This document shows, piece by piece, positions 17,908-28,606 of a stretch of DNA of 64,000 nucleotides (positions are counted from its first letter, which is position 1; each line of letters begins with the position of its first letter). Origin of the DNA: Nitrospirota bacterium. Its GTDB lineage: Bacteria; Nitrospirota; UBA9217. The stretch covers positions 1 to 64,000 of the forward strand of contig CAVVUN010000015.1 of assembly GCA_963751455.1 (NCBI GenBank), written 5' to 3'. Made by a program: the position numbers and the translations under genes. Below the pieces are notes generated by a model. That model was not told the DNA's origin, searched no databases, and was given only the letters and a program-made list of their open reading frames with translations.

Positions 17908-19560
17908 ATGATTATCAATAAGTTGATTCTGGCTGTAGTTGCGGTATTTTCAGCAGCGGTTTTGTTGTCTGCCTGCGGAGGCGGAAGCAGCAATGGCTCT
18001 GGTGGCGCGGCCCAACCGGTCGTCAGTGCAGTTACACCGACACCGGACACAAAAGAGGTTTCCTATAATGCAGTAATTTCGGCTACATTCAGTTCGGCAA
18101 TGACAAGCTCGTCTATCACCGGCAGTTCATTCGTGCTCAGCACCGCTACCGCGACCTCAGTGTCGGGTACGGTTACCTATGACGCCCTGACGAAAAAGGC
18201 CGTCTTTGCTCCGTCCGCTGCTGAAAAGCTTGCAACTGCCACTACCTATACCGCCACGATAACGACCGGGGCGAAAGATAGCGCCGGTACGGCACTGGCA
18301 AGCAACTACTCTTGGTCTTTCAAGACAACGCACCTGGATGAATATCTTTTTGGAACCAAGGGCAAGGTGGCCACCAATGTCGGCGCCACTACGACGACTG
18401 ACGACATTGCATATGCTGTTGCCATTCAGGCGGATGGGAAAATCGTGGTCGCCGGTGACGCGACCGATTCTGTCGCAGGCGATACGCCGCGCTTTGCGCT
18501 TGCCAGATACACAACTGCGGGAGTTCTCGATACAACGTTTAACAGCACCGGAATCCAGCGGCAAGCCCACATTGGGTCGAGCACCTGGGACCAGATCAGA
18601 GCAATGGCAATTGACGCAACCGGTAAGATCGTGGTGGCGGGGTGGAGTGACGGGGACACCTTGGTTGCCCGGTATAACGCAAATGGCACTCCGGACAGCA
18701 CCTTTGGCACAGCCGGTACAGGCGTAGTGGTCGATGACCTTTCCGGCACAACCCATGATGACAGCGCATTTTCAACGGCCATTCAAACGGACGGAACCAT
18801 CATTGTAGCCGGATCCAGCGCATGTGGAGGGAGCTTCCATACTTGCCTGGCGCTGGCCCGTTATAACAGCACGACTGGAAGCAGAATCAGCGTTACTACG
18901 ACGGATATTGAAGCGACTGCCACCGGTATCCGTTCAATCGCGATTGACAGCACAGGCAGGATAGTTGCTGCCGCAGCAACCGGTGCCGACCAGGTCGGAA
19001 ACGTAGGCAAGCATATTGTTGTGGTCAGATACTCGAGCACTGGTGTTCTGGATACGTCTTTTAATGCAGCAAGTACACCGGGATATATTGTTACGAACTT
19101 GTCCACGTATGGTGATTCAGCACAAGCGATTGCGATTCAGCCGTTGGATAATAAGATCCTTGTCGCCGGCTGGGCTGGGCAGGATGCCGTTGTGCTTCGG
19201 TACAATGTAGATGGTTCGATCGACACGACCTTCGGCACTCAGGGCAGAGCAGTTACGGATATAGGCAGTGGCAACAATTACGCGCTGGCTCTTGCGCTCC
19301 AGTCCGATGGAAAGATCGTGGCTGCTGGCACCGCTCCCAATCCGCTGGACAGCGGCGACGATGTTTTTGCCTTGATGCGCTATACGGCAACCGGCACTCT
19401 TGATACGACCTTTGAGAATAACGGCGTTGCGCTGCTCAACTTTACAGCGCCGAACAACGTTGACGCGGCGCATGCGATCGCTGTTGATCCAACCAGCGGC
19501 AAGATCGTCATAGCGGGCGAGGCTGGCGGAGATTTCGGCGTCGCACGCTATGTAAAATAA
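17908..19560 (+). CDS. Surface lipoprotein with an Ig-like (SbsA/Big_5) domain and delta-60 (DUF5122) repeat beta-propeller
   Basis: Lipobox LLSAC; ISATFSSAM...YTATITTGAKD..G..LASNYSWSFKT; repeated AIQxDGKIVVAG / ARYxxxGxLDTTF units. Confidence 0.85.
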   Translation: MIINKLILAVVAVFSAAVLLSACGGGSSNGSGGAAQPVVSAVTPTPDTKEVSYNAVISATFSSAMTSSSITGSSFVLSTATATSVSGTVTYDALTKKAVFAPSAAEKLATATTYTATITTGAKDSAGTALASNYSWSFKTTHLDEYLFGTKGKVATNVGATTTTDDIAYAVAIQADGKIVVAGDATDSVAGDTPRFALARYTTAGVLDTTFNSTGIQRQAHIGSSTWDQIRAMAIDATGKIVVAGWSDGDTLVARYNANGTPDSTFGTAGTGVVVDDLSGTTHDDSAFSTAIQTDGTIIVAGSSACGGSFHTCLALARYNSTTGSRISVTTTDIEATATGIRSIAIDSTGRIVAAAATGADQVGNVGKHIVVVRYSSTGVLDTSFNAASTPGYIVTNLSTYGDSAQAIAIQPLDNKILVAGWAGQDAVVLRYNVDGSIDTTFGTQGRAVTDIGSGNNYALALALQSDGKIVAAGTAPNPLDSGDDVFALMRYTATGTLDTTFENNGVALLNFTAPNNVDAAHAIAVDPTSGKIVIAGEAGGDFGVARYVK

Positions 19561-19580
19561 TAACTAACGAGAATTCTTTC

Positions 19581-19617
19581 AGCAGCCCCGCGCATGTTCC
19601 GCGGGGCTGTTTTTTTT
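19581..19617 (+). terminator. Intrinsic terminator
   Basis: GCAGCCCCGCG ... CGCGGGGCTGT followed by a T run. Confidence 0.85.
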
Positions 19618-19624
19618 CGCCCTT

Positions 19625-19766
19625 CTGTGAAAAGGCTGTGATTACAGAGCGGATGATGAAGGGCGGTACCAGCGCGTAACGCTCGATGGGAGAAGTGTCG
19701 AGGTGAGAAACAACTAACGGCGAGAGTTTTTGGATTGCGCAAAAATCAGTGGGAATAGTTCACCTA
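19625..19766. repeat. ~140-bp direct repeat, copy 1
   Basis: Shares GTGATTACAGAGCGGATGATGAAGGGCGGT, TCGAGGTGA, TAACGGCGAGAG and AGTGGGAATAGTTCACCTA with 21143..21285. Confidence 0.9.
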
Positions 19767-20951
19767 CGAGTGTGAAATTTCTATGAGTTCTTTCAGACGC
19801 ACTCCGTTCACGGCTCGTATCTGCTTGCCGATAGAAAACTCTTCTTTGACTCGCGAAATCACGAGTCCCTTGATTACTGCATCATCCCCATAATAGCTCC
19901 GCAACGCATGAAATCCCTTCTGCGCGTCGGCCCCCGGAGCACCCGTCAATTTCGCTTCAAGCGCGATGAACCTTCCGCCCTTCTCTACGAGGAAGTCGAC
20001 CTCCTGACCGTCGTTCGTGCGCCAATAATAAAGAGGCGGATTCGTCAGTCCTTGCGCAAGAAGGGTCCGGTAGATCTGATTGAATGCATAGGTTTCCCAG
20101 AGCGCCCCCGCCAAATGGGACTTTTCGAGCTCCTGCCACGAGAACAGTCCCGTAAGGTGCGCGGCAAGCCCGGTATCGAGGAAGTATATCTTGGGTGACT
20201 TGACGAGACGTTTGCCGATGCTCCGATGATAAGGTTCGAGCAGGAAGACGATATGAGACGCCTCCAGCACGGAAACCCAAGCCTTGATCGTATTCGGAGC
20301 GACGCCGACATCGCGGGCGAGGTCCGAGAGCGAAAGCGTTTGAGCGGTTCTGGCCGCTATTGCCCGTAAGAAGCGGTTAAAATCGCGAAGATTGCCTACG
20401 CGCAGTATATTTCTCACATCCCGCTCCAGATAGGTTGCCACGTAGGACGGGTACCAGGTCATGGGATTGATGGAATCACCTGCGTAAAGCGCCGGGAATC
20501 CGCCCTTGGCGATATACTCCTCGACTGAAGGCATGCGCCGCGAATCCGCCAATTCCTGAGCAGACAGCGATTGAAGGCTGACAATGCCGCACCGGCCTGC
20601 AAGGCTTTCGGTGAGATTGTGCATCAAATTAAAGCTCTGGGAGCCGGTTATGAAATACTGTCCCTTCTTCTTTGTTTTATCCACGATCAGCTTGATGTGG
20701 CGAAACAGGCCCGGGGCATACTGTGCCTCGTCGATAATCGCGGGAGAGGGCAGTGAGTTAAGGAAGTCGGACGGAGAATTCTCGGCATCCGAAGCTTTGG
20801 CCGGATCGTCCAGGGTCACATAGGAATAGTCCCGGAAGAGATGGTTCAGGATGCTGGTCTTGCCGACCTGACGCGCGCCGGTAACGAATACGACAGGAAA
20901 CAGGCGTGAAAAATCCCGAATCACGGTTTCCGCATTTCTTGTTATCCACAT
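19764..20951 (-). CDS. AAA_14 + DUF4143 ATPase with a C-terminal PD-(D/E)xK-like motif
   Basis: GARQVGKT, IIDEAQ, ITGS, ESLAGR, GGFP, TYLERD, KSPKIYFLDTG, YYWRT and EVDFLV..IALEAK. Confidence 0.9.
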   Translation of the reverse strand: MWITRNAETVIRDFSRLFPVVFVTGARQVGKTSILNHLFRDYSYVTLDDPAKASDAENSPSDFLNSLPSPAIIDEAQYAPGLFRHIKLIVDKTKKKGQYFITGSQSFNLMHNLTESLAGRCGIVSLQSLSAQELADSRRMPSVEEYIAKGGFPALYAGDSINPMTWYPSYVATYLERDVRNILRVGNLRDFNRFLRAIAARTAQTLSLSDLARDVGVAPNTIKAWVSVLEASHIVFLLEPYHRSIGKRLVKSPKIYFLDTGLAAHLTGLFSWQELEKSHLAGALWETYAFNQIYRTLLAQGLTNPPLYYWRTNDGQEVDFLVEKGGRFIALEAKLTGAPGADAQKGFHALRSYYGDDAVIKGLVISRVKEEFSIGKQIRAVNGVRLKELIEISHS

Positions 20952-20957
20952 GCGGAT

Positions 20958-20986
20958 ATTATGCAATTGAATTGCAAAATTGTCAA
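20958..20986 (-). promoter_or_regulatory. Sigma70 promoter with an internal palindrome; probably gives a leaderless mRNA
   Basis: TTGACA-N17-CATAAT ends 6 nt before the ATG at 20951. The palindrome TGCAAT-N3-ATTGCA lies in the spacer. Confidence 0.7.
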
Positions 20987-21093
20987 GACCTTTGCACTAT
21001 CGGGAGCATAATCTGGGGATGCGAACAGGAAGCCGTGATTCGTTGACGTCGATAGCGATGCCCTTGTACCGCATCTTGTCAACAACAAAGATT

Positions 21094-21140
21094 CGACCCC
21101 ATTAGTTTCCCGACCCCATTAGTTTCTTCGACCCCATTAG
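21094..21140. repeat. Three tandem CGACCCCATTAG units (GGGGTC-type terminal motif)
   Basis: Copies at 21094, 21111 and 21129, preceded by TTGTCAAcaaCAAAGATT. Confidence 0.85.
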
Positions 21141-21142
21141 GT

Positions 21143-21285
21143 CTCTGAAAAAGCCGTGATTACAGAGCGGATGATGAAGGGCGGTGCCAGCGTCGTGATG
21201 TTCTGTGGATAAGTTTCGAGGTGAAAAGCAACTTAACGGCGAGAGCTTTTGGATAACGCAAAAATAAGTGGGAATAGTTCACCTA
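21143..21285. repeat. ~140-bp direct repeat, copy 2
   Basis: Aligns by eye with 19625..19766, with scattered substitutions and small indels. Confidence 0.9.
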
Positions 21286-21335
21286 CTACTGTGCAACGAG
21301 GTCACTTTCCAATTCTGTTTATTACCATTAGAAAC

Positions 21336-21390
21336 TTTGAACCCGCGGATCACGCCGCAAGGCGCGACGCTGAGGATCCGCAGGTTGAAA
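21336..21390. repeat. 55-bp imperfect palindrome with AAC...GTT ends
   Basis: TTTGAACCCGCGGATC ... GATCCGCAGGTTGAAA. Confidence 0.65.
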
Positions 21391-21525
21391 TCATCATGTT
21401 GAGTAATGCACGCTAGGTATCAACGTCACCAAAGCTTCTTCTTTCCGAAATTCACTGTCAAGCATCCGGCTTTTAGGTAGCCTTCACGAAGACTCTACAA
21501 TTAAGAGACAAAGCACGCTGAGAAC

Positions 21526-21644
21526 GAACGTCCCCAAAATTTGCAATCTCCCGCTGGCTGTAACTATGTTTCTCAACCGCTTGCCTGATAGCCTTCTTGC
21601 GTTTCGTCATGCTCTTCAACTTTATCTCGCTGAATGCTCTGTTT
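21526..21644 (-). pseudogene. 3' remnant of a RAYT/TnpA-Y1-like transposase C-terminal HTH, broken at a GGGGACGTTC motif
   Basis: Translates as KRKKAIRQAVEKHSYSQREIANF, then runs into GGGGACGTTC. Confidence 0.6.
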
Positions 21645-24600
21645 CTACTTATCGTTGTCTTGGACTTTTTTTCGACGTTGCTCGATCTTACGCCTTTTTC
21701 TAAAATCACGTATTATTTCCACCTTCTTGCTATTGCTATAATTTCGAGCATTTACAAATAAATCACCAATTAAGTTTTCGTACTGTTTGTCAGACTCTTT
21801 CGTTTTCGAGCGCAAATAATAATAAGTTAATAACTTGAATAGAGTCATATCCACTAGATGAGGATTCCGAACATTTTTTACAAAATTATGTATATGTCGA
21901 GCTGCATCCCGGCCTCTAATATCAGCGTATAAGAATGTAGAAATATATTTTTCAAAGTCAGATTTGTCTCTGGCCTTTTCATCCGCCTTAATTTTTTCTC
22001 TAAAGACCACGCTAAGCTTTGTCGTTCCAATAAGCATTTTTATCCATAATTCATGAATTAAAGGCAGCACATTTCTCTGTAGTTCAAGCTCCTCATCGAG
22101 TTTAAAGCCTTCCTTCTTTTCGTTTTCAGCAATGTATCGCTCAATAAAAGACTTCCATAAAATTGCGTACGCCATTGAGCAATGAAGCAGTGATGTATAG
22201 CTACGATATTTTAAATCTGGAATTGTCGTCTCTTCCGTATTTTTTAGAACCCGAGCAGCTAAAGTCCATAACAGTTCTTTTTTTTGCTTGTCACTGATTT
22301 TGGCTTCTTTTTTTTGTATCCCTTTTTCCACAGGTATCTTTGCCAAAGCATTGTCTTGAATTTCGTCAATTTGATCCTGACTTGGTTTCGGTTTATCAGT
22401 TAGTCGAAGTAGAAAATTCTCATCGGCTTTGACTAACATTGATTGTTGGTTCTCGAATATTTCGTCAAAGGTGTGCGGAAACTGCATTATACGATTTATT
22501 ACCTCTTTAAAGTCCTTTTCCATTCTTCCAATTACGGTCTCAAGTATATCTGAACAATCCCTCTTGATGCCCGTATAATAATCAATTTCGTCAGTAAACA
22601 TTAAATAATTTTCTTCACTCATTACAAAATCTTTAAAAGTTGGATCAAAATCCATTTTACGACTTATAAAATAATGCATGAAACAGCTGAATCTGAATCT
22701 AATAAATATACCTGCATCATCTATTTCTTCGATAAATACGCCTTTGTCGATAAAGTGATCAAGAACGTCTTTTGCTTGAATAAAATCAAATTTCTTGGCT
22801 TTCAAACTGTCATCGATAAAGTCGATTAAATCGCGCGATGACATCTGATAATTTTCTGAGTTGTTTTCCAGCATTCGAAAGGCTATTTCTGCTAATAATC
22901 TTTCCTTATTGCGAAAATCAAATCTGTCAGAATATATTTCTTTACGTGCGTGTTTTTCAAATAATTTTTCGATGAAATGCTCAAGCATAGTTGCATTATT
23001 TATGGGTTGATAATTTTCCTGTTGTTCCAATATCCAAAGGAACATGGATATCGCTAATGGTGTTCGTGGAAGATTGAGCATTAAAAAGGTATCCAAAAGT
23101 TTTTCGATTTTATCTTCGACGTCAGGAGAGGGATTTTCTGAAAACCAATTTTTTATCAACAGGCGCGTTTCAGAAGAGCCGAATGATTTGATGTGTAATT
23201 TACGCAGTCCAGCATAAAAAGGGAAATTGTAAAGTTCTATCGGCACAGCTCCTTCGGCTACTTGGAAAGAAGCGCCAATCATTGTCACATTTGGCGCTTC
23301 ATCTAAAAACTTCTGAAGAGCACCTAATTGATACGAATCATATTCATTAAAACTCAGGTTATCAACTAGCAAAAGCAGTTTATGCTTTGAGCACAAGTCT
23401 TTGATAAAGGAAATGCTTATACCAAGAAATCGCGAAATTAGTGTTTCAATTCGGCTTGATTTTATCTGACGAAAATCTATATGGATTGGGATTAATCTGT
23501 GCTGCTGTATGCTCTCTGAAAGATAAACAAGGATACGATCAAGTAAAATAGATTTTCCTGACTCTTTCACTCCAAACACTATTTGGCTTGCCGGATATAA
23601 GCATAACTCTTCGATTGATACGTTTTTTTCTTTTGTCTTTTTCTCACCTTCAAAATTTATTTTTTCAACGACTTTTGGCATGACAAAAAGGCTCTTTAAC
23701 TCTCTAGGCGCTTTTGTATTTGTGTTATAAGTCAATAAGTGCTCGTTCAATTCTCCAAAATGCGTATTCGTTATAGTAATTGCTAAATCGTTTTCATAAT
23801 TTCTCAACTTCAGCTCGCCCGATGAAGGAAGTTTAAATTTACTGATTCCAAAGTCATTTCCTAAATCATTATTAGCTACATATGAATTTTTTCTATGAGA
23901 ATATCGCCGGTTTGTAACTTCGATTTCTAGTGACCCAGGGTCGAAATCAACAATTGAGTATCCGTTACTGTAATCTATACTCTTCTCTTCCACTCTAAAA
24001 CTCCAACTGCTCGGTGCCACTGACACAAATAACCCCTTATAAATGTCAGACTTTAACCAAGAAGATCCCGAGTGAACATGACCGCTGAATATAAGTTGAA
24101 AAGTATTTTCAAGCAGAGGTTCAATACACCTTCTGTCGAAATCCGCAAGCCATTCGACTGGATGATGAAGAAGAGCTATGTTAATGGTGTTATCCTTGAA
24201 GAAATTTTTTGCGGCAGTAAGTTGGCGTTCTCCAATTATTAAGTTGTGACGATCCTTGCCATCTTCATAGCTTCGCCAAGCTGAATTTAAACAAGCAATG
24301 CCTGTTTTCATGGAGCTTAGTTCTATGTTAAAAAGCGAATGGTAATTTGTCAAAATACAATTGCTTACGCCATCGTAAAATGTTTTTCCAAAAGTTTTAA
24401 AGGGTAACATTCTTTTTATTCCTTCTAGGTTCCCACTATCTATATAGTCATTGACCGCGTCGATATTATTTAATATTTGATGTAACCCTGCTTCTGACAC
24501 CTTCGAGTCGCGATCTCTCCAAATATCATGGTTTCCAGGAATAAAGAATATACGATCGTTTTTTAGCGATAATGCTTTCATGAGAGGAGCTATTACAAGC

Positions 24601-24805
24601 GTATTGACAGTCTCGTAGCAACTGTCTTATCTTTAAAGGCACTTGCACCCTTATCGATAATATCTCCCGTAAGTAAGACAATATCGAATTTTTTCTCGAT
24701 ATGGTATTTTTTAACATCTTGCAGAAATGGATCAACAACGAATGCTGTCATTTCACCAAGGTATTCGGACGAAACATGTAAATCAGATAGATGTAAAATT
24801 CTCAT
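21645..24805 (-). CDS. Calcineurin-like metallophosphoesterase fused to a STAND/NACHT-type NTPase (~1050 aa, one frameshift near 24610); candidate defence protein
   Basis: ILHLSDLH and LTGDIID in ORF 24593..24805. PGNHD, LNSAW, LLHHP, GHVH, Walker A GVKESGKS, Walker B LLLVDN and TPL in ORF 21645..24581. Visibly AT-rich. Confidence 0.82.
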
Positions 24806-24875
24806 GTCATCTCCCTTTTGCTTTTTTACAGATAAGCGTTTGATTTATACAAGTAGTACCAATAAAGGAACCTCA

Positions 24876-25100
24876 TAGGGTCAGGTCTTGGATTATCTTT
24901 TTTCTTCAAATCCCTTTATTATCTTGCTTACCGTAGTATAATGAATATCGAGATGATCCGCAATCTCTTTAAGAGTGTATCCGTATTTGACATGAGCAGC
25001 ATGAACGTGTTTGTTTCTCCAGTTGATCTTCTCGTCTGCCGAAAATTGTTTGGATAAGCGTGGCCGATTCACATATCGCTGAACTGACTAGGGTCAGGTC
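24876..25100 (-). mobile_element. RAYT/TnpA-Y1 transposase 3' remnant bracketed by two direct TAGGGTCAGGTC motifs
   Basis: Minus-strand translation QRYVNRPRLSKQF...RNKHVHAAHVKYGYTLKEIADHLDIHYTTVSKIIKGFEEKR* (stop 24893-24895). Motifs at 24876-24890 and 25089-25100. Confidence 0.75.
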
Positions 25101-25187
25101 CATATTCATGGACTTTTGAAGATTTAATTCTATTTGAGCTTTCCTGATACTCCATCACTTCGTCGTGCGCCACGCTATTCCAGTGAC

Positions 25188-25375
25188 TCATGTATGTTTA
25201 AGAAAAAGATTTCGGACCTTATTGGCTCCGATCAATTCCTTCAGCAGCGTATAATTCTTTTTCTCGTACTTGATGCGGCCCGCCGGAATCGCGGGACTGA
25301 TCCTCAGTTTCTCGGCAAATGCCCGCACCGCCTGCGCTGAATAGCAGCGGGAAAGGCCGGCCCTGGTCCATCGCT
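25188..25375 (-). pseudogene. 3' end of a HigA/ImmA-IrrE-type (HTH + peptidase) gene, copy A
   Basis: KRWTRAGLSRCYSAQAVRAFAEKLRISPAIPAGRIKYEKKNYTLLKELIGANKVRNLFLKHT*. Truncated upstream at a GCAGGCTGTTGAAAA IS/MITE-like end. Confidence 0.65.
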
Positions 25376-25499
25376 TAGCAGGCTGTTGAAAACCCTCCGT
25401 TCACCCTTCGTCCTTGGAGCCCGAAAAGGGACGTTGTGACCGAAATGGACTACAGTTCTCCGATATCAGTTACAGAGCGTAAGCTGCGATGCAGATATC

Positions 25500-25820
25500 C
25501 TATGCAGTCTTCGCGAGAATAATCCTGCCGATTTGCTTTTTCGAAGAGCCCAGAGCAATGATTGACCTCACAATAAGGTCTAGAGACACGGAAGATTCTG
25601 CACGCTCGATCTTGGCAACTCGCGACTGGCTCGACTTGATTTTCTCAGCAACCTGCACCTGCGTAAGATGTTTTTTCTTCCGCAATTCCTGGAAATAATT
25701 CGAGAGGGCTAGTTTCATCTCGATGTACTCTTCCTCCTCACGGCTCAATTGAAGAAAATCAGAAACAGAGCCGACTTTCCAACCCTGCTTCTCAAGTCTT
25801 TTAATCTTATCTTTTTTCAT
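25500..25820 (-). CDS. XRE/HTH antitoxin
   Basis: GWKVGSVSDFLQL, LTQVQVAEKIKSSQSRVAKIE. RBS GAGGTG; downstream of the toxin gene. Confidence 0.85.
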   Translation of the reverse strand: MKKDKIKRLEKQGWKVGSVSDFLQLSREEEEYIEMKLALSNYFQELRKKKHLTQVQVAEKIKSSQSRVAKIERAESSVSLDLIVRSIIALGSSKKQIGRIILAKTA

Positions 25821-25831
25821 GATTATCACCT

Positions 25832-26161
25832 CTAACATTTATCATAAGCAGCAATTCGTTTTTTGCAGATATTGATTATATTCTTAGGCGTTTTCTGACT
25901 TTTCTTTTCAAAAACGTCCAATATTAAGATCGCATCGTCATCCAACCGGCAAATGATTCTCCATGTCTTGTCCTTATCGTTGATCCTGAGTTCATGACAA
26001 CGCGCGCAAATCGATGTCATGGGCCTGGAATGTGGTAGTGACAAGCGTTCGCCACTTTGCAGGCATCGCAAAAGATACCCTGCCTCGATCCGCGCGTCCG
26101 AAGATAGTGGCGGGGTTTTTACTTCACCATGCAACCAGACAAGTGGTTTTGGCTTCATCAT
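25832..26161 (-). CDS. RelE/ParE-superfamily (Gp49/DUF891-like) toxin
   Basis: KPLVWLHGEVKTPP, LPHSRPM, CHELRI, WRII and VFEKKSQKTP. Toxin-first (HigBA-like) order. Confidence 0.85.
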   Translation of the reverse strand: MMKPKPLVWLHGEVKTPPLSSDARIEAGYLLRCLQSGERLSLPHSRPMTSICARCHELRINDKDKTWRIICRLDDDAILILDVFEKKSQKTPKNIINICKKRIAAYDKC

Positions 26162-26169
26162 CTCTACTT

Positions 26170-26198
26170 ACTATATGTCATATCTGACATAATGTCAA
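26170..26198 (-). promoter_or_regulatory. TA promoter with a palindromic operator
   Basis: TTGACA-N17-TATAGT; palindrome TATGTCA-TATC-TGACATA (26174-26191) in the spacer. Confidence 0.75.
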
Positions 26199-26222
26199 AC
26201 ACATAATTACATAAGACGAACC

Positions 26223-26339
26223 CGTAAAAAGTCAAGATTTGCCACAGAGGACACAGAGAGTACAGAGATAAAACCTTAAAAAGTTAAAGATTTTCTCTGA
26301 GTCCTCCGTGACCTCTGTGGCTGAAAAAGAGTTTTTACG
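26223..26339. repeat. Nested palindromic MITE-like element
   Basis: Outer CGTAAAAAGTC/GAGTTTTTACG. Inner 9-nt-periodic GCCACAGAG-GACACAGAG-AGTACAGAG ... CTCTGAGTC-CTCCGTGAC-CTCTGTGGC. Confidence 0.7.
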
Positions 26340-26403
26340 AATCTATTACATAAAGACGGTTTGGTTTTAAGGTATTATCAAAGAGCACCTTAGAGAGCCA
26401 CCA

Positions 26404-26418
26404 TAGGGACAGGTCTTG
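26404..26418. repeat. TAGGGACAGGTCTTG motif (same family as 24876 and 25089)
   Basis: One mismatch to TAGGGTCAGGTCTTG; followed by cggcTTGACA. Confidence 0.7.
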
Positions 26419-26510
26419 CGGCTTGACAAATGCCTTCTTCCGCTCACTTCAATGGTTTAACGACGTGGTGTCCTCAATATCATTTAAGTCTCGGACAACG
26501 ACATCAATAT

Positions 26511-27539
26511 TTAGCCTGTCGTCATATGCTGCCTGAATTCCTTCCGCGCTTTTGCAGATTCCTTGCACTTTTTCACTTTGGTCAACTTAACGCCGAGCAG
26601 CGAAAGCACGGGCTGCAGGATAACTGAGGCTTCATCGCTTTCAACCATAACTTCTCGAGGGCAGATCTTATTTTTCTCAACCGCACTCAATAAATACTCC
26701 GGGAGCTGACTCTGGTAAGAATGCGGCGGAGCGATCTGGCTATCAAGTATAAATCCCGATCCGGTATCGATTATCATCAGAAATATCAAATAAAAGGGCC
26801 TTCCCGATTCTTTCACCGGCATGTTCTCCAGAGCATACGAGAATTCCCAGATCCCCGACTTTTTCGCGTTTGATGTCAATCGCATCACGCGACTTTCATC
26901 GATTGCACAACGCTCAATCGGATTGGGCTGAATCGGGTCGGGTTTGAGCCACTCGTCGGTCCATTGGTTCTTTTCGTCTCCGGGCTTCTTAACGCGAACA
27001 AGATAGTGGCCCGGGGTGCGGGATTTGAGAATATCCATGCTCTCTTTGCATCGCACGCAAACATTCATGGCCTGATCGAGGACAAGACAGAGAAAATCGG
27101 CGTCCCCCGCGCTGAGAAACCAAGGGAAGTATCCGGGAGTCAAATTGCGAAAACACGGATATGCTTTCGTCCCGTGAAACGTCAGGGCTAACGCGTTTAT
27201 GACGGACAGATCTTCCTGTTCCAGCACGCTTTTATCATTGAAGGTAACGCTGAGGCATTTCTGCGCCAGGAAGTCGTCGAATGCATCCGATGAGGAATTT
27301 CCTCTCAAAAGGCGCTGATAGCTGGAAAACCCCTCAGTCCCTTGATATACGATTATTCCCAATTGCTGCCCGAGATTTCCGATGATGCAGCAGTAGCCGA
27401 TCTCGCCTGTTGCAGGATTTTGTACGCCGAATACCTCTTCGTCTGTCATCCATTGCCAGCACGCGAGTTTTCGGAACTTGGTTGATAAATTATAGAGTGA
27501 TTTCCATTGTTCAATCGTCGGTTCTGTTGTTTGAGACAT
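26511..27539 (-). CDS. Conserved hypothetical protein (DUF7309/DUF6930-like)
   Basis: WQWMTDEEVFGVQNPATGEIGYCCIIG..G, PCFR..PGYFPW. RBS GAGGTGAG. Confidence 0.7.
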   Translation of the reverse strand: MSQTTEPTIEQWKSLYNLSTKFRKLACWQWMTDEEVFGVQNPATGEIGYCCIIGNLGQQLGIIVYQGTEGFSSYQRLLRGNSSSDAFDDFLAQKCLSVTFNDKSVLEQEDLSVINALALTFHGTKAYPCFRNLTPGYFPWFLSAGDADFLCLVLDQAMNVCVRCKESMDILKSRTPGHYLVRVKKPGDEKNQWTDEWLKPDPIQPNPIERCAIDESRVMRLTSNAKKSGIWEFSYALENMPVKESGRPFYLIFLMIIDTGSGFILDSQIAPPHSYQSQLPEYLLSAVEKNKICPREVMVESDEASVILQPVLSLLGVKLTKVKKCKESAKARKEFRQHMTTG

Positions 27540-27559
27540 CCGGCTCACCTCATCACCAT

Positions 27560-27709
27560 TTATGTATGGTTAAGAAAAAGATTTCGGACCTTATTGGCTC
27601 CGATCAATTCCTTCAGCAGCGCATAATTCTTTTTCTCGTACCTTATGCGTCCCTCCGGAATTGCGGGACTGATCCTCAGGTCCTCGGCAAATGCCCGCAC
27701 CGCCTGCGC
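27560..27709 (-). pseudogene. 3' end of a HigA/ImmA-IrrE-type gene, copy B
   Basis: 148-bp match to 25190..25337 with 9 substitutions by my count; ends ...VRNLFLNHT*. Confidence 0.7.
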
Positions 27710-27907
27710 GACCGAAATCGACGAGAGGCGACAAGTGAGGAGTCGTTACAGCTATCAATTACGGGACGTAATCTGTGGCAGCGATTATGGATTCCACTTT
27801 GCAGACTACAGGAAGAAAGATTGCCCAGTCGAGCAAAGTATAGTAGAATTCCTCTTCAAGATAAAGAGTAAAATTATCAAGCGGCAAGGATTTGAGATCA
27901 AATTTCC

Positions 27908-28606
27908 ATGCGAAAAGAAACGACAGATGGACAACTAAAACTCCTTTTTTGCCATACGGCAGATTCTCTCAAGCATTACCTTGAAGAGGGTCTCGGCAAG
28001 AGTGTCTGTCTCATCCTCACAAAAAATTCAACAAGCATGCTTTCGGCAGGAACGCGTGACGGGGTGATGCAGATTCGGTTGAGCCGGATATTTCTGAACG
28101 CAGGCAATGACGTGATCGAGGAAATTGTTTCTTTCCTGAAAAAGAAAAAAAGCAAGATGCTTCTTTTCCATAAATTCGTGCGAGAGAACGGAGAGCAGCT
28201 TCGCACAAAGCCGCCGAAGAATATCTCCCTTAAGAGCATGGGCAAGTTCCATGACCTTCGTGAATTATATGACGAGATCAACCGTAACTATTTTGGCGGC
28301 CTGGTCTCTGCCGCGATAACGTGGGGGTCGAGAAGTCCTCGCTACGCGGTCAGAAAAAGAACGCTCGGAAGTTACAGTGCAAGGCCGAACTTGATCAGGA
28401 TCAATCCCGTGCTCGACAGGAAATCAGTTCCCCATTATTATATCGCCTTCGTGGTGTATCACGAGATGCTTCATGCCGCCATAGGCATTTTAGAAAAGGG
28501 CGGAAGAAGAAGCGTCCACTCGAAAGAGTTCAAGAAGAGAGAAAGGCTTTTTAAAGATTACGAGAAGGCTGTGGTGTGGGAGCGGGGTGCAACGCAGAGA
28601 GCATAG
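27908..28606 (+). CDS. SprT-like zinc metallopeptidase-domain protein
   Basis: INRNYFGG, ITWG, LGSY, IRINPVLD, YHEMLH and HSKEF. Confidence 0.8.
   Translation: MRKETTDGQLKLLFCHTADSLKHYLEEGLGKSVCLILTKNSTSMLSAGTRDGVMQIRLSRIFLNAGNDVIEEIVSFLKKKKSKMLLFHKFVRENGEQLRTKPPKNISLKSMGKFHDLRELYDEINRNYFGGLVSAAITWGSRSPRYAVRKRTLGSYSARPNLIRINPVLDRKSVPHYYIAFVVYHEMLHAAIGILEKGGRRSVHSKEFKKRERLFKDYEKAVVWERGATQRA

Follow-up and report, generated by a model that had tools for sequence, protein, structure and literature searches.

The GGG-containing motifs around a metallophosphoesterase-STAND gene in a Nitrospirota bacterium are terminal inverted repeats (TIRs) of TIRYT elements, which encode a Y1/HUH transposase with a C-terminal helix-turn-helix (HTH) domain. 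The DNA analyzed, hereafter the window, covers the initial 64 kb of contig C15 (CAVVUN010000015.1) of the 5.72-Mb, 15-contig genome G000 (GCA_963751455.1), an assembly with 5.37% contamination; coordinates prefixed G000:C refer to contigs of this genome, and G115, G147 and G168 are relatives. Other DNA joins at the tips of these ends, some tips are stuttered, and two non-element genes have been copied from an end. Our reading, to which we assign a probability of roughly 0.6, is that the TIRYT transposase may make joints one end at a time, carrying a variable amount of the DNA on the inner side of that end. Such one-ended mobilization would probably be opportunistic and similar in effect to that of the insertion sequence (IS) IS91, rather than a vehicle specific to defense genes.

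A genome scan returned 35 Y1_Tnp matches, about 10 of them full-length proteins of 275-326 amino acids (aa) that start with M(A/P)R(P/Q), each located between inward-pointing inverted repeats. PF01797 (HUH and Y---NP core) was above cut-off in all five of the intact TIRYT proteins scanned and NF047646 in two, and HTH_28/HTH_23/HTH_38 matches were obtained for three, as well as for remnant 1, one of two transposase fragments beside the STAND gene. A TIRYT hidden Markov model (HMM), built from 13 full-length proteins with H.H and Y...NP required, scored 42.0 bits with remnant 1 (best of 200 shuffles, 5.5) and 22.5 bits with remnant 2 (best of 200 shuffles, 4.2). Both comprise the tail portion only, without the HUH/Y---NP core part; a first-pass annotation of this DNA had assigned them to a RAYT-like Y1 family with an HTH, and that assignment holds. 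One 289-aa TIRYT element is present in five 96-98% identical copies, at different sites and with TIRs of ~30 bp, and the family has therefore moved recently.

Inward TIR pairs flank intact genes of three TIRYT subfamilies, A, B and C. All five motifs listed in the first-pass annotation lie where it had placed them and, together with two further sites at 21430 and 25426, are TIRs of these subfamilies (Table 1); the comparison with intact Y1_Tnp-HTH genes that it had suggested yielded matching ends on intact elements of families A, B and C alike. The TIR runs 7-9 nt beyond the GGG core, typically ending in GAAC or GAAT. TTGACA follows the ends at 21101 and 26404, as had been noted; a promoter scan listed 20 sites against 15.6 in shuffles, with no matching -10 box in that list for either TTGACA.

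Under a Markov model, AGGG(A/T)CAGGTC occurs 31 times in the genome against 5.7 expected, and three times in the window against 0.06 expected. Taken alone, neither GGGGTCG (507 in the genome, 463 expected) nor the 10-mer GGGGACGTTC (10 in the genome, 8.9 expected) is enriched. Trained on the ends of TIRYT genes in genome regions outside the window (21 ends), a weight matrix gave 18.8-27.7 bits for the window sites 21101, 24876, 25089 and 26404, and 73 genome sites scored above 18 bits, compared to two in one simulated genome. The motif at 21535 (GGGGACGTTC) was initially put down to chance since its 10-mer is not enriched, a view overturned by matches in relatives: it extends to a family C end of ~30 bp with 88-94% matches there, and in G168 this end forms a perfect inverted TIR pair around a 331-aa TIRYT. 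The family C pattern was present in 9 of the 63 genomes of the same taxonomic family and in none of the 237 other genomes searched, and a worn copy lies at window 21430; a loose 13-mer for this end type was discarded, its matches being mostly due to chance. On C9, a 323-aa gene lies between ends of the family B type, GGGGACGTAGTGACCGAAATGGAC, which is encountered again at window 25426. Hairpin folding singled out only one of six window ends as folding better than shuffles. A candidate fourth end type, GGGGTCGGACCACGCTAAA, adjoins TIRYT fragments at G000:C12:233516, C12:249591 and C2:~435030 and is linked to no intact gene here, and three mini-elements of ~77 bp consist of two facing family A ends (G000:C12:204449-204525, 213391-213467 and 215163-215239).

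The outer tips of these ends coincide with joints. At 30 of 81 ends, homology to sequences in other places breaks off 3-45 nt beyond the core; the counts are 65 of 1500 for random sites and 57 of 905 for island-shifted sites, while classical IS ends resemble the TIRYT ends (24 of 94). For outer flanks that have homologues elsewhere, most joints fall 6-10 nt beyond the core and their sequences vary, and neither a short target-site duplication nor a fixed target was seen at TIRYT ends. Among 30 listed internal breaks in TIRYT fragments, six lie at an outer TIR tip, both window remnants included; eight are frameshift or MITE pairs (MITE, a miniature transposable element with inverted repeats), and in three or more another element has inserted. 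The first-pass annotation had the remnants starting or stopping exactly at the motifs, which is right as regards the TIR terminus and needs shifting as regards the GGG core: the breaks at 25081 and ~21540 lie ~6-10 nt outside it. Of 89 ends, 17 carry stutters, meaning tandem partial copies of the end's own tip, and among 5000 random sites 38 do.

Orphans make up 56 of the 89 ends, with unrelated DNA and no transposase DNA following inward, and there are TIR tips joined to the interior of genes unrelated to them; these are single-end events. Genes cut by ends include the start of hsdM, a HigA tail, an integrase and transposases, and the ends face both ways and do not sit at gene borders. Altogether, comparison of the sequences supports the motifs as probable cut/join sites. 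Regarding the position of a cut, 29 of 61 stutter joints, relatives pooled, are compatible with A^G (C^T on the outward-reading strand), against a background of 16%, and this A^G / C^T rule is a candidate at the level of a hint. The 3' tip of a TIRYT element interrupts an integron integrase gene (TIGR02249 above cut-off) at one locus (G000:C1:553957-555317), and a second copy of this region lies at C3:356678-358561, beside another TIRYT end. A reverse-transcriptase gene, probably of a group II intron, and an IS200 each lie inside a TIRYT gene (G000:C3:359909-361350 and G000:C1:505681-506258).

Two gene-sized duplications start at such tips. Module A (window 19786-21108), a TIR end with an AAA-DUF4143 gene, is 98.3% identical to C3:54823-56144; module B (window 26383-27709), a TIR end with a DUF7309/DUF6930 gene, is 97.7% identical to C8:236306-237630 over its first 1329 bp. 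In both pairs the copies begin at the TIR tip, and the flanks outside it are unrelated. The C8 copy of module B continues through a whole HigA/ImmA gene and shares its far boundary with window 27817, the window version lacking ~2 kb internal to the C8 copy. G000 has 64 low-copy duplications of non-element DNA that reach 300 bp or more; of these, the two modules begin at a TIR end, where 0.03 would be expected by chance (P about 5e-4, or 3e-3 at the island's end density). The window and C3 copies of module A account for the 2 of 10 DUF4143 genes in the genome that lie beside an end. A triple stutter is present in the window copy of module A and absent from the C3 copy, and the tip must therefore have changed at or after duplication. 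Further arrangements of this kind comprise a whole TIRtron plus 2.1 kb past its 3' TIR between 100% identical direct repeats of 76 bp at C15:1294475, and a second instance of the layout 3' TIR, cargo, TIRYT tail at C12:233588-235566. Judged from these alignments, neighboring DNA likely travels with a TIRYT end.

Mechanistically, the TIRYT enzyme would bind the GGG(T/A)C core, perhaps via its HTH, nick single-stranded DNA a few bases outside the core with low sequence specificity, and transfer the cut tip to a target. Resolution of the far side at an arbitrary point would then leave behind orphan ends and nested transposase fragments, as well as deletions and long direct duplications. All this would take place where insertions are tolerated, namely in islands rich in defense and toxin-antitoxin genes, and one-ended action of this kind would yield orphan ends, stutters, nested fragments and copies of an end plus a gene. 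The chemistry proposed here is modeled on that of E. coli TnpA-REP (REP, repetitive extragenic palindrome), and the outcome is likened to IS91 one-ended transposition.

Several observations weigh against one-ended carriage of neighboring DNA. The modules number only two, both involve the window, and they come from one assembly with the contamination level given above. No duplicated non-element module was found in 53 end-centered loci of G115 and G147, and all the loci from relatives share inner stretches of ~145 bp at most, both in fragmented assemblies. The repeats D and D', which lie just past the distal end of module A and at its stuttered terminus, are merely 85% alike. The first 100 aligned columns at the module ends hold 16-17 differences, partly in outer flank, against 0-6 per 100 in the interior; since divergence at the module ends exceeds that of the interior, exchange of ends by recombination would also fit. 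The A^G signal stems mostly from one site (TA^GGG), is inflated by related or overlapping ends and false calls, and misfits family C. Inner direct repeats at TIR ends show no excess (9 of 81, against 4 of 94 IS ends; P=0.15), and several of them are older, pre-existing repeats or paralogue starts, on which grounds a long target duplication was rejected as a TIRYT signature. As for the cargo, 80 STAND homologue loci were collected by alignment scans (22 + 58, many with short flanks), of which only one, L017, clearly and another, L032, weakly carry TIRYT-like ends, and none holds TIRYT coding DNA. Ends were present at DUF7309 homologues in none of 13 other genomes, and at homologues of the AAA-DUF4143 gene (PADLOC PDC-S01) in 3 of 17 loci, compared to 2 of 20 control loci. 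Because the homologue loci of all three genes mostly lack ends, the cargo is not tied to TIRYT ends.

The near absence of ends from cargo homologues (1-2 of 80 loci in the case of STAND), the extra divergence adjoining the module ends and the lack of module duplicates in the relatives examined would also suit the main alternative, a different and rather unlikely history, in which the island is hot-spot wreckage: TIRYT moves only itself and piles up in insertion-tolerant islands, cargo arrives by other routes, and the modules are copied by host recombination or gene conversion, with 30-45 bp of TIR homology as one crossover. Other mobile elements at the same places (within TIRYT genes, IS200 and the group II intron; at TIR tips, copies of IS elements) point the same way. 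However, recombination at the TIR covers one boundary only; a second homology is needed, and none was seen at the far end of module A in C3. In addition, the orphan ends and the tips inside unrelated genes denote single-end events, whatever follows them.

The association of TIRYT ends with defense genes was assessed from open reading frames (ORFs) within 1.5 kb of an end, the window being left out and 20 of 39 IS loci far from ends serving as controls. In G000, 22 of 186 ORFs near TIRYT ends matched PADLOC, compared to 3 of 86 beside classical IS (P=0.025); once generic matches had been dropped, a filter that was a matter of hand judgement and removed five test and three control ORFs, the counts were 17 and 0 (P=0.002). 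By clusters, 8 of 30 near ends held a match against 0 of 20 at IS (P=0.015), and the systems represented near ends include CBASS, AbiE, type I restriction-modification, SoFic and PD-Lambda-2. In the relatives, the excess was not significant, either for ORFs (18 of 150 near ends, 6 of 79 in controls; P=0.37) or for loci (15 of 52, 4 of 20; P=0.56), with control regions hand-picked from end-carrying contigs, two of which (of 20) held an end. Defense enrichment near the motif, which the first-pass annotation had proposed to examine across genomes, is thus present in G000 and not significant in its relatives. Its proposal that the motifs are active cut/join sites mobilizing defense cargo keeps its first half as a probable reading, in view of the joints at the tips and the two genes copied from an end, and has the defense specificity confined to G000.

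Alternatively, TIRYT might be a dedicated system of integron type, its ends marking off cassettes and its enzyme selectively gathering and rearranging defense genes. This reading would draw on the PADLOC excess in G000 and on an unrelated SAR324 genome (L017), where the same pair of STAND and AAA-DUF4143-like genes lies among TIR-like ends. We consider it improbable, since the excess is lacking at significant level in the relatives, the ends face both ways, cut genes and ignore gene borders, and much of the cargo near them is not defense-related. No integrase was found among 13 window proteins scanned, which are not every ORF of the region. At one further locus (G000:C6:269602-272060), CBASS cyclase and E2 genes lie beside ends of families A, C and B.

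The STAND gene itself has a GC (guanine plus cytosine) content of 34-37%, against 51% for the genome, and matches the PDC-S60 profile over positions 1-55 and 71-1022 of 1027, across two frames. It and the AAA-DUF4143 gene are full-length matches to PADLOC PDC-S60 and PDC-S01, respectively; a single frameshift interrupts the PDC-S60 copy past codon ~60 (~24620), and an anti-phage role would be putative. This frameshift and one in the C8 copy of DUF7309 (G000:C8:236431-237461) may reflect decay or sequencing error. A literature search for 'PDC-S60' returned no paper. Remnant 2 begins no more than a few codons from where the STAND gene stops, and the motif at 24876 is the natural 3' TIR of remnant 1, its terminus lying ~60 bp upstream of the STAND start codon.

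The first-pass annotation took motifs and remnants to bracket the STAND gene as a mobile unit, and this is not supported. A composite element with the gene as payload would suit the TIRYT remnants within ~100 bp of both gene ends and the low-GC, foreign character of the gene, but it needs two like ends facing the cargo and was rejected on orientation, the two nearest ends (21535 and 24876) both facing outward and belonging to subfamilies C and A, the remnants deriving from different elements, no second STAND copy having been found in a comparison of the genome, and homologues rarely having ends; we regard it as the most improbable of the explanations considered. Tentatively, read-through past the 3' TIR of the element that left remnant 1 could have taken the STAND gene along and joined it into the TIRYT gene that left remnant 2, which fits the geometry.

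A single-protein scan of genome contigs found no STAND homologue, and in the phylum N-terminal matches only were obtained, from 3 of 300 further genomes. Ends are lacking at the homologues nearest in sequence (53-65%), several of them with little flank. In L017 (705-6260), a total of five TIR-like ends lie to either side of the STAND family gene and face away from it, and the gene adjoins an AAA-DUF4143-like gene, as in the window (by sequence likeness, no profile scan); L032 has two weaker TIR-like ends. A bolder and equally tentative extension of one-ended carriage is that TIRYTs could be widespread gene mobilizers which, acting on a TIR of ~30 bp, orphan ends included, and copying kilobases of adjacent DNA, are a main engine building and reshuffling defense islands in end-rich lineages, a Y1/TIR counterpart of IS91/ISCR (IS91 has a Y2 enzyme), with the STAND loci here and in SAR324 as two products.

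The class of elements has already been published. In the retrieved portions of the papers, TIRYT/TIRtron (Di Nocera et al. 2013, PMC3733652), TnpA-Y1 subclass 2.1 (Quentin et al. 2018, PMC6006769) and RAYT Group 1 (Bertels et al. 2017, PMC5581495) denote the same group, whose TIR consensus is GGGG[AT][CG]A[CG] (PMC6006769) and which has the highest duplication rate among RAYTs, 6.2% (PMC5581495). As far as those portions go, the G000 elements agree in their Y1/HUH core with Y---NP, the C-terminal HTH_23/HTH_28-like domain, TIRs near the consensus, dispersed solo TIRs and the absence of REP hairpins. The retrieved portions mention neither termini, cut sites and stutters nor carried genes. The G000 elements differ in that one of them has five copies 96-98% identical, the TIR extends ~7-9 nt past the published core, joints lie at the tips and duplications of non-element genes start from an end; furthermore, families B and C read GGGGACGT and depart from the published consensus at its last two positions. 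The hairpin REPs with a GTAG/GTGG foot that characterize REPtrons (subclasses 2.2/2.4/2.5) are likewise absent, the ends being TIRs without such a foot.

IS91/IS1294 (and ISCR) use an HUH enzyme, make no short target duplication and co-mobilize adjacent DNA when one end is used, and IS91 has two distinct ends (oriIS and terIS) and a tetranucleotide target (PMC13181058, portions retrieved). TIRYT differs from these systems in its Y1 enzyme, symmetrical TIRs and varied targets, with neither distinct ends nor a fixed target, and the co-mobilization measured in IS91 is only inferred for TIRYT. E. coli TnpA-REP, a related Y1 enzyme, cuts at C^T over 400 nt away from where it binds and carries out strand transfer (Ton-Hoang et al., PMC3333891, portions retrieved). 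It binds a short repeat, cuts at a distance and belongs to a system (REP-BIME, the latter bacterial interspersed mosaic elements) with tandemly amplified repeats; unlike there, no GTAG-footed hairpin is present here, the TIRYT gene is multicopy and mobile, and the repeats are TIRs.

Our literature searches, which did not cover supplements or figures, turned up no paper describing TIRYT cut sites or genes carried by TIRYT. What this locus would add, going by the alignments, is a set of mapped tips and two end-anchored gene copies, and the proposed one-ended carriage would be new, with genomic support short of proof. G000 offers intact enzymes from several subfamilies together with mapped termini, a candidate rule for cutting (C^T) and natural products to work from (stutters, nested joints, putatively carried genes). 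If single ends do carry neighbors, orphan ends would be latent mobilization sites that help to explain the patchwork of defense islands, and the enzyme could provide a compact tool for joining single-strand DNA; even if not, this would be the first map of TIRYT termini as far as literature searches show.

Table 1. Features of the island within the window (contig C15, window coordinates).
Feature	Position	Strand	Remarks
Repeat D, just past distal end of module A	19624-19777	.	85% direct copy of D'; sequence comparison
AAA_14 + DUF4143 gene, cargo of module A	19764-20966	-	PADLOC PDC-S01 candidate defense gene; profile match
Module A: TIR end + PDC-S01 gene	19786-21108	-	98.3% copy at G000:C3:54823-56144
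Family A end (GGGGTCGAATCTTT...TTGACAA)	21076-21144	-	points into module A; two tandem 17-18-nt stutter copies of terminus
Repeat D'	21142-21296	.	ends where stuttered TIR terminus starts
Degenerate family C end (GGTGACGTTGATACCTAGCGTGCATT)	21405-21440	-	absent from first-pass list
Family C end (GGGGACGTTCGTTCTCAGCGTGCTTT)	21509-21545	-	terminus cuts remnant 2; points away from STAND gene
Remnant 2, TIRYT C-terminal fragment	21533-21643	-	HMM positions ~234-266 of 285
Metallophosphoesterase-STAND (nSTAND4) gene	21645-24805	-	PADLOC PDC-S60; one frameshift
Natural 3' TIR of remnant 1 (GGAACCTCATAGGGTCAGGTCTTG)	24867-24900	+	points away from STAND gene
Remnant 1, TIRYT C-terminal HTH fragment	24893-25081	-	HMM positions 223-283 of 285
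5'-type family A end (GAACTGACTAGGGTCAGGTCCATA...GGACTTTT)	25081-25115	+	terminus joined into remnant 1
HigA/ImmA-like gene, 3' tail	25176-25376	-	full copies at C3:63299-64501 and C8:237481-238683
Family B end (GGGACGTTGTGACCGAAATGGAC)	25426-25452	+	absent from first-pass list
Gp49-like toxin + HTH_3 antitoxin gene pair	25500-26161	-	
Family A end (TAGGGACAGGTCTTGCGGCTTGACAA)	26383-26430	+	terminal stutter; points into module B
Module B: TIR end, DUF7309/DUF6930 gene, second HigA/ImmA tail, 109-bp tail	26383-27817	+	copy at G000:C8:236306-239710
DUF7309/DUF6930 gene in module B	26511-27548	-	
Second HigA/ImmA tail in module B	27562-27709		

Read along the minus strand from 27.8 kb down, the order is HigA/ImmA tail, DUF7309, the 26404 end, a MITE-like element, the toxin-antitoxin pair, the family B end, HigA/ImmA tail, the 25089 end, remnant 1, the 24876 TIR, ~60 bp, the STAND gene, remnant 2, two family C ends, D', the stuttered family A end, AAA-DUF4143 and D. 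The C8 copy of the HigA/ImmA-like gene (237481-238683) matches PADLOC PD-Lambda-2_B. The island is flanked by a Big_5/DUF5122 beta-propeller surface protein gene with a terminator (17908-19560) and by a SprT-like gene (27908-28606), and Rfam gave no match over window 19400-28000. The MITE-like element, which is palindromic (26212-26346), has at least nine other copies in G000 and many in relatives of the same family. Elsewhere in the genome, contigs C7/C1, C10/C15 and C2/C12 share long 88-96% duplications, which are either repeated islands or a strain mixture, and several further dispersed repeat families have 5-41 copies each, for example GGGACGCAGAAAAATCGGATAA.

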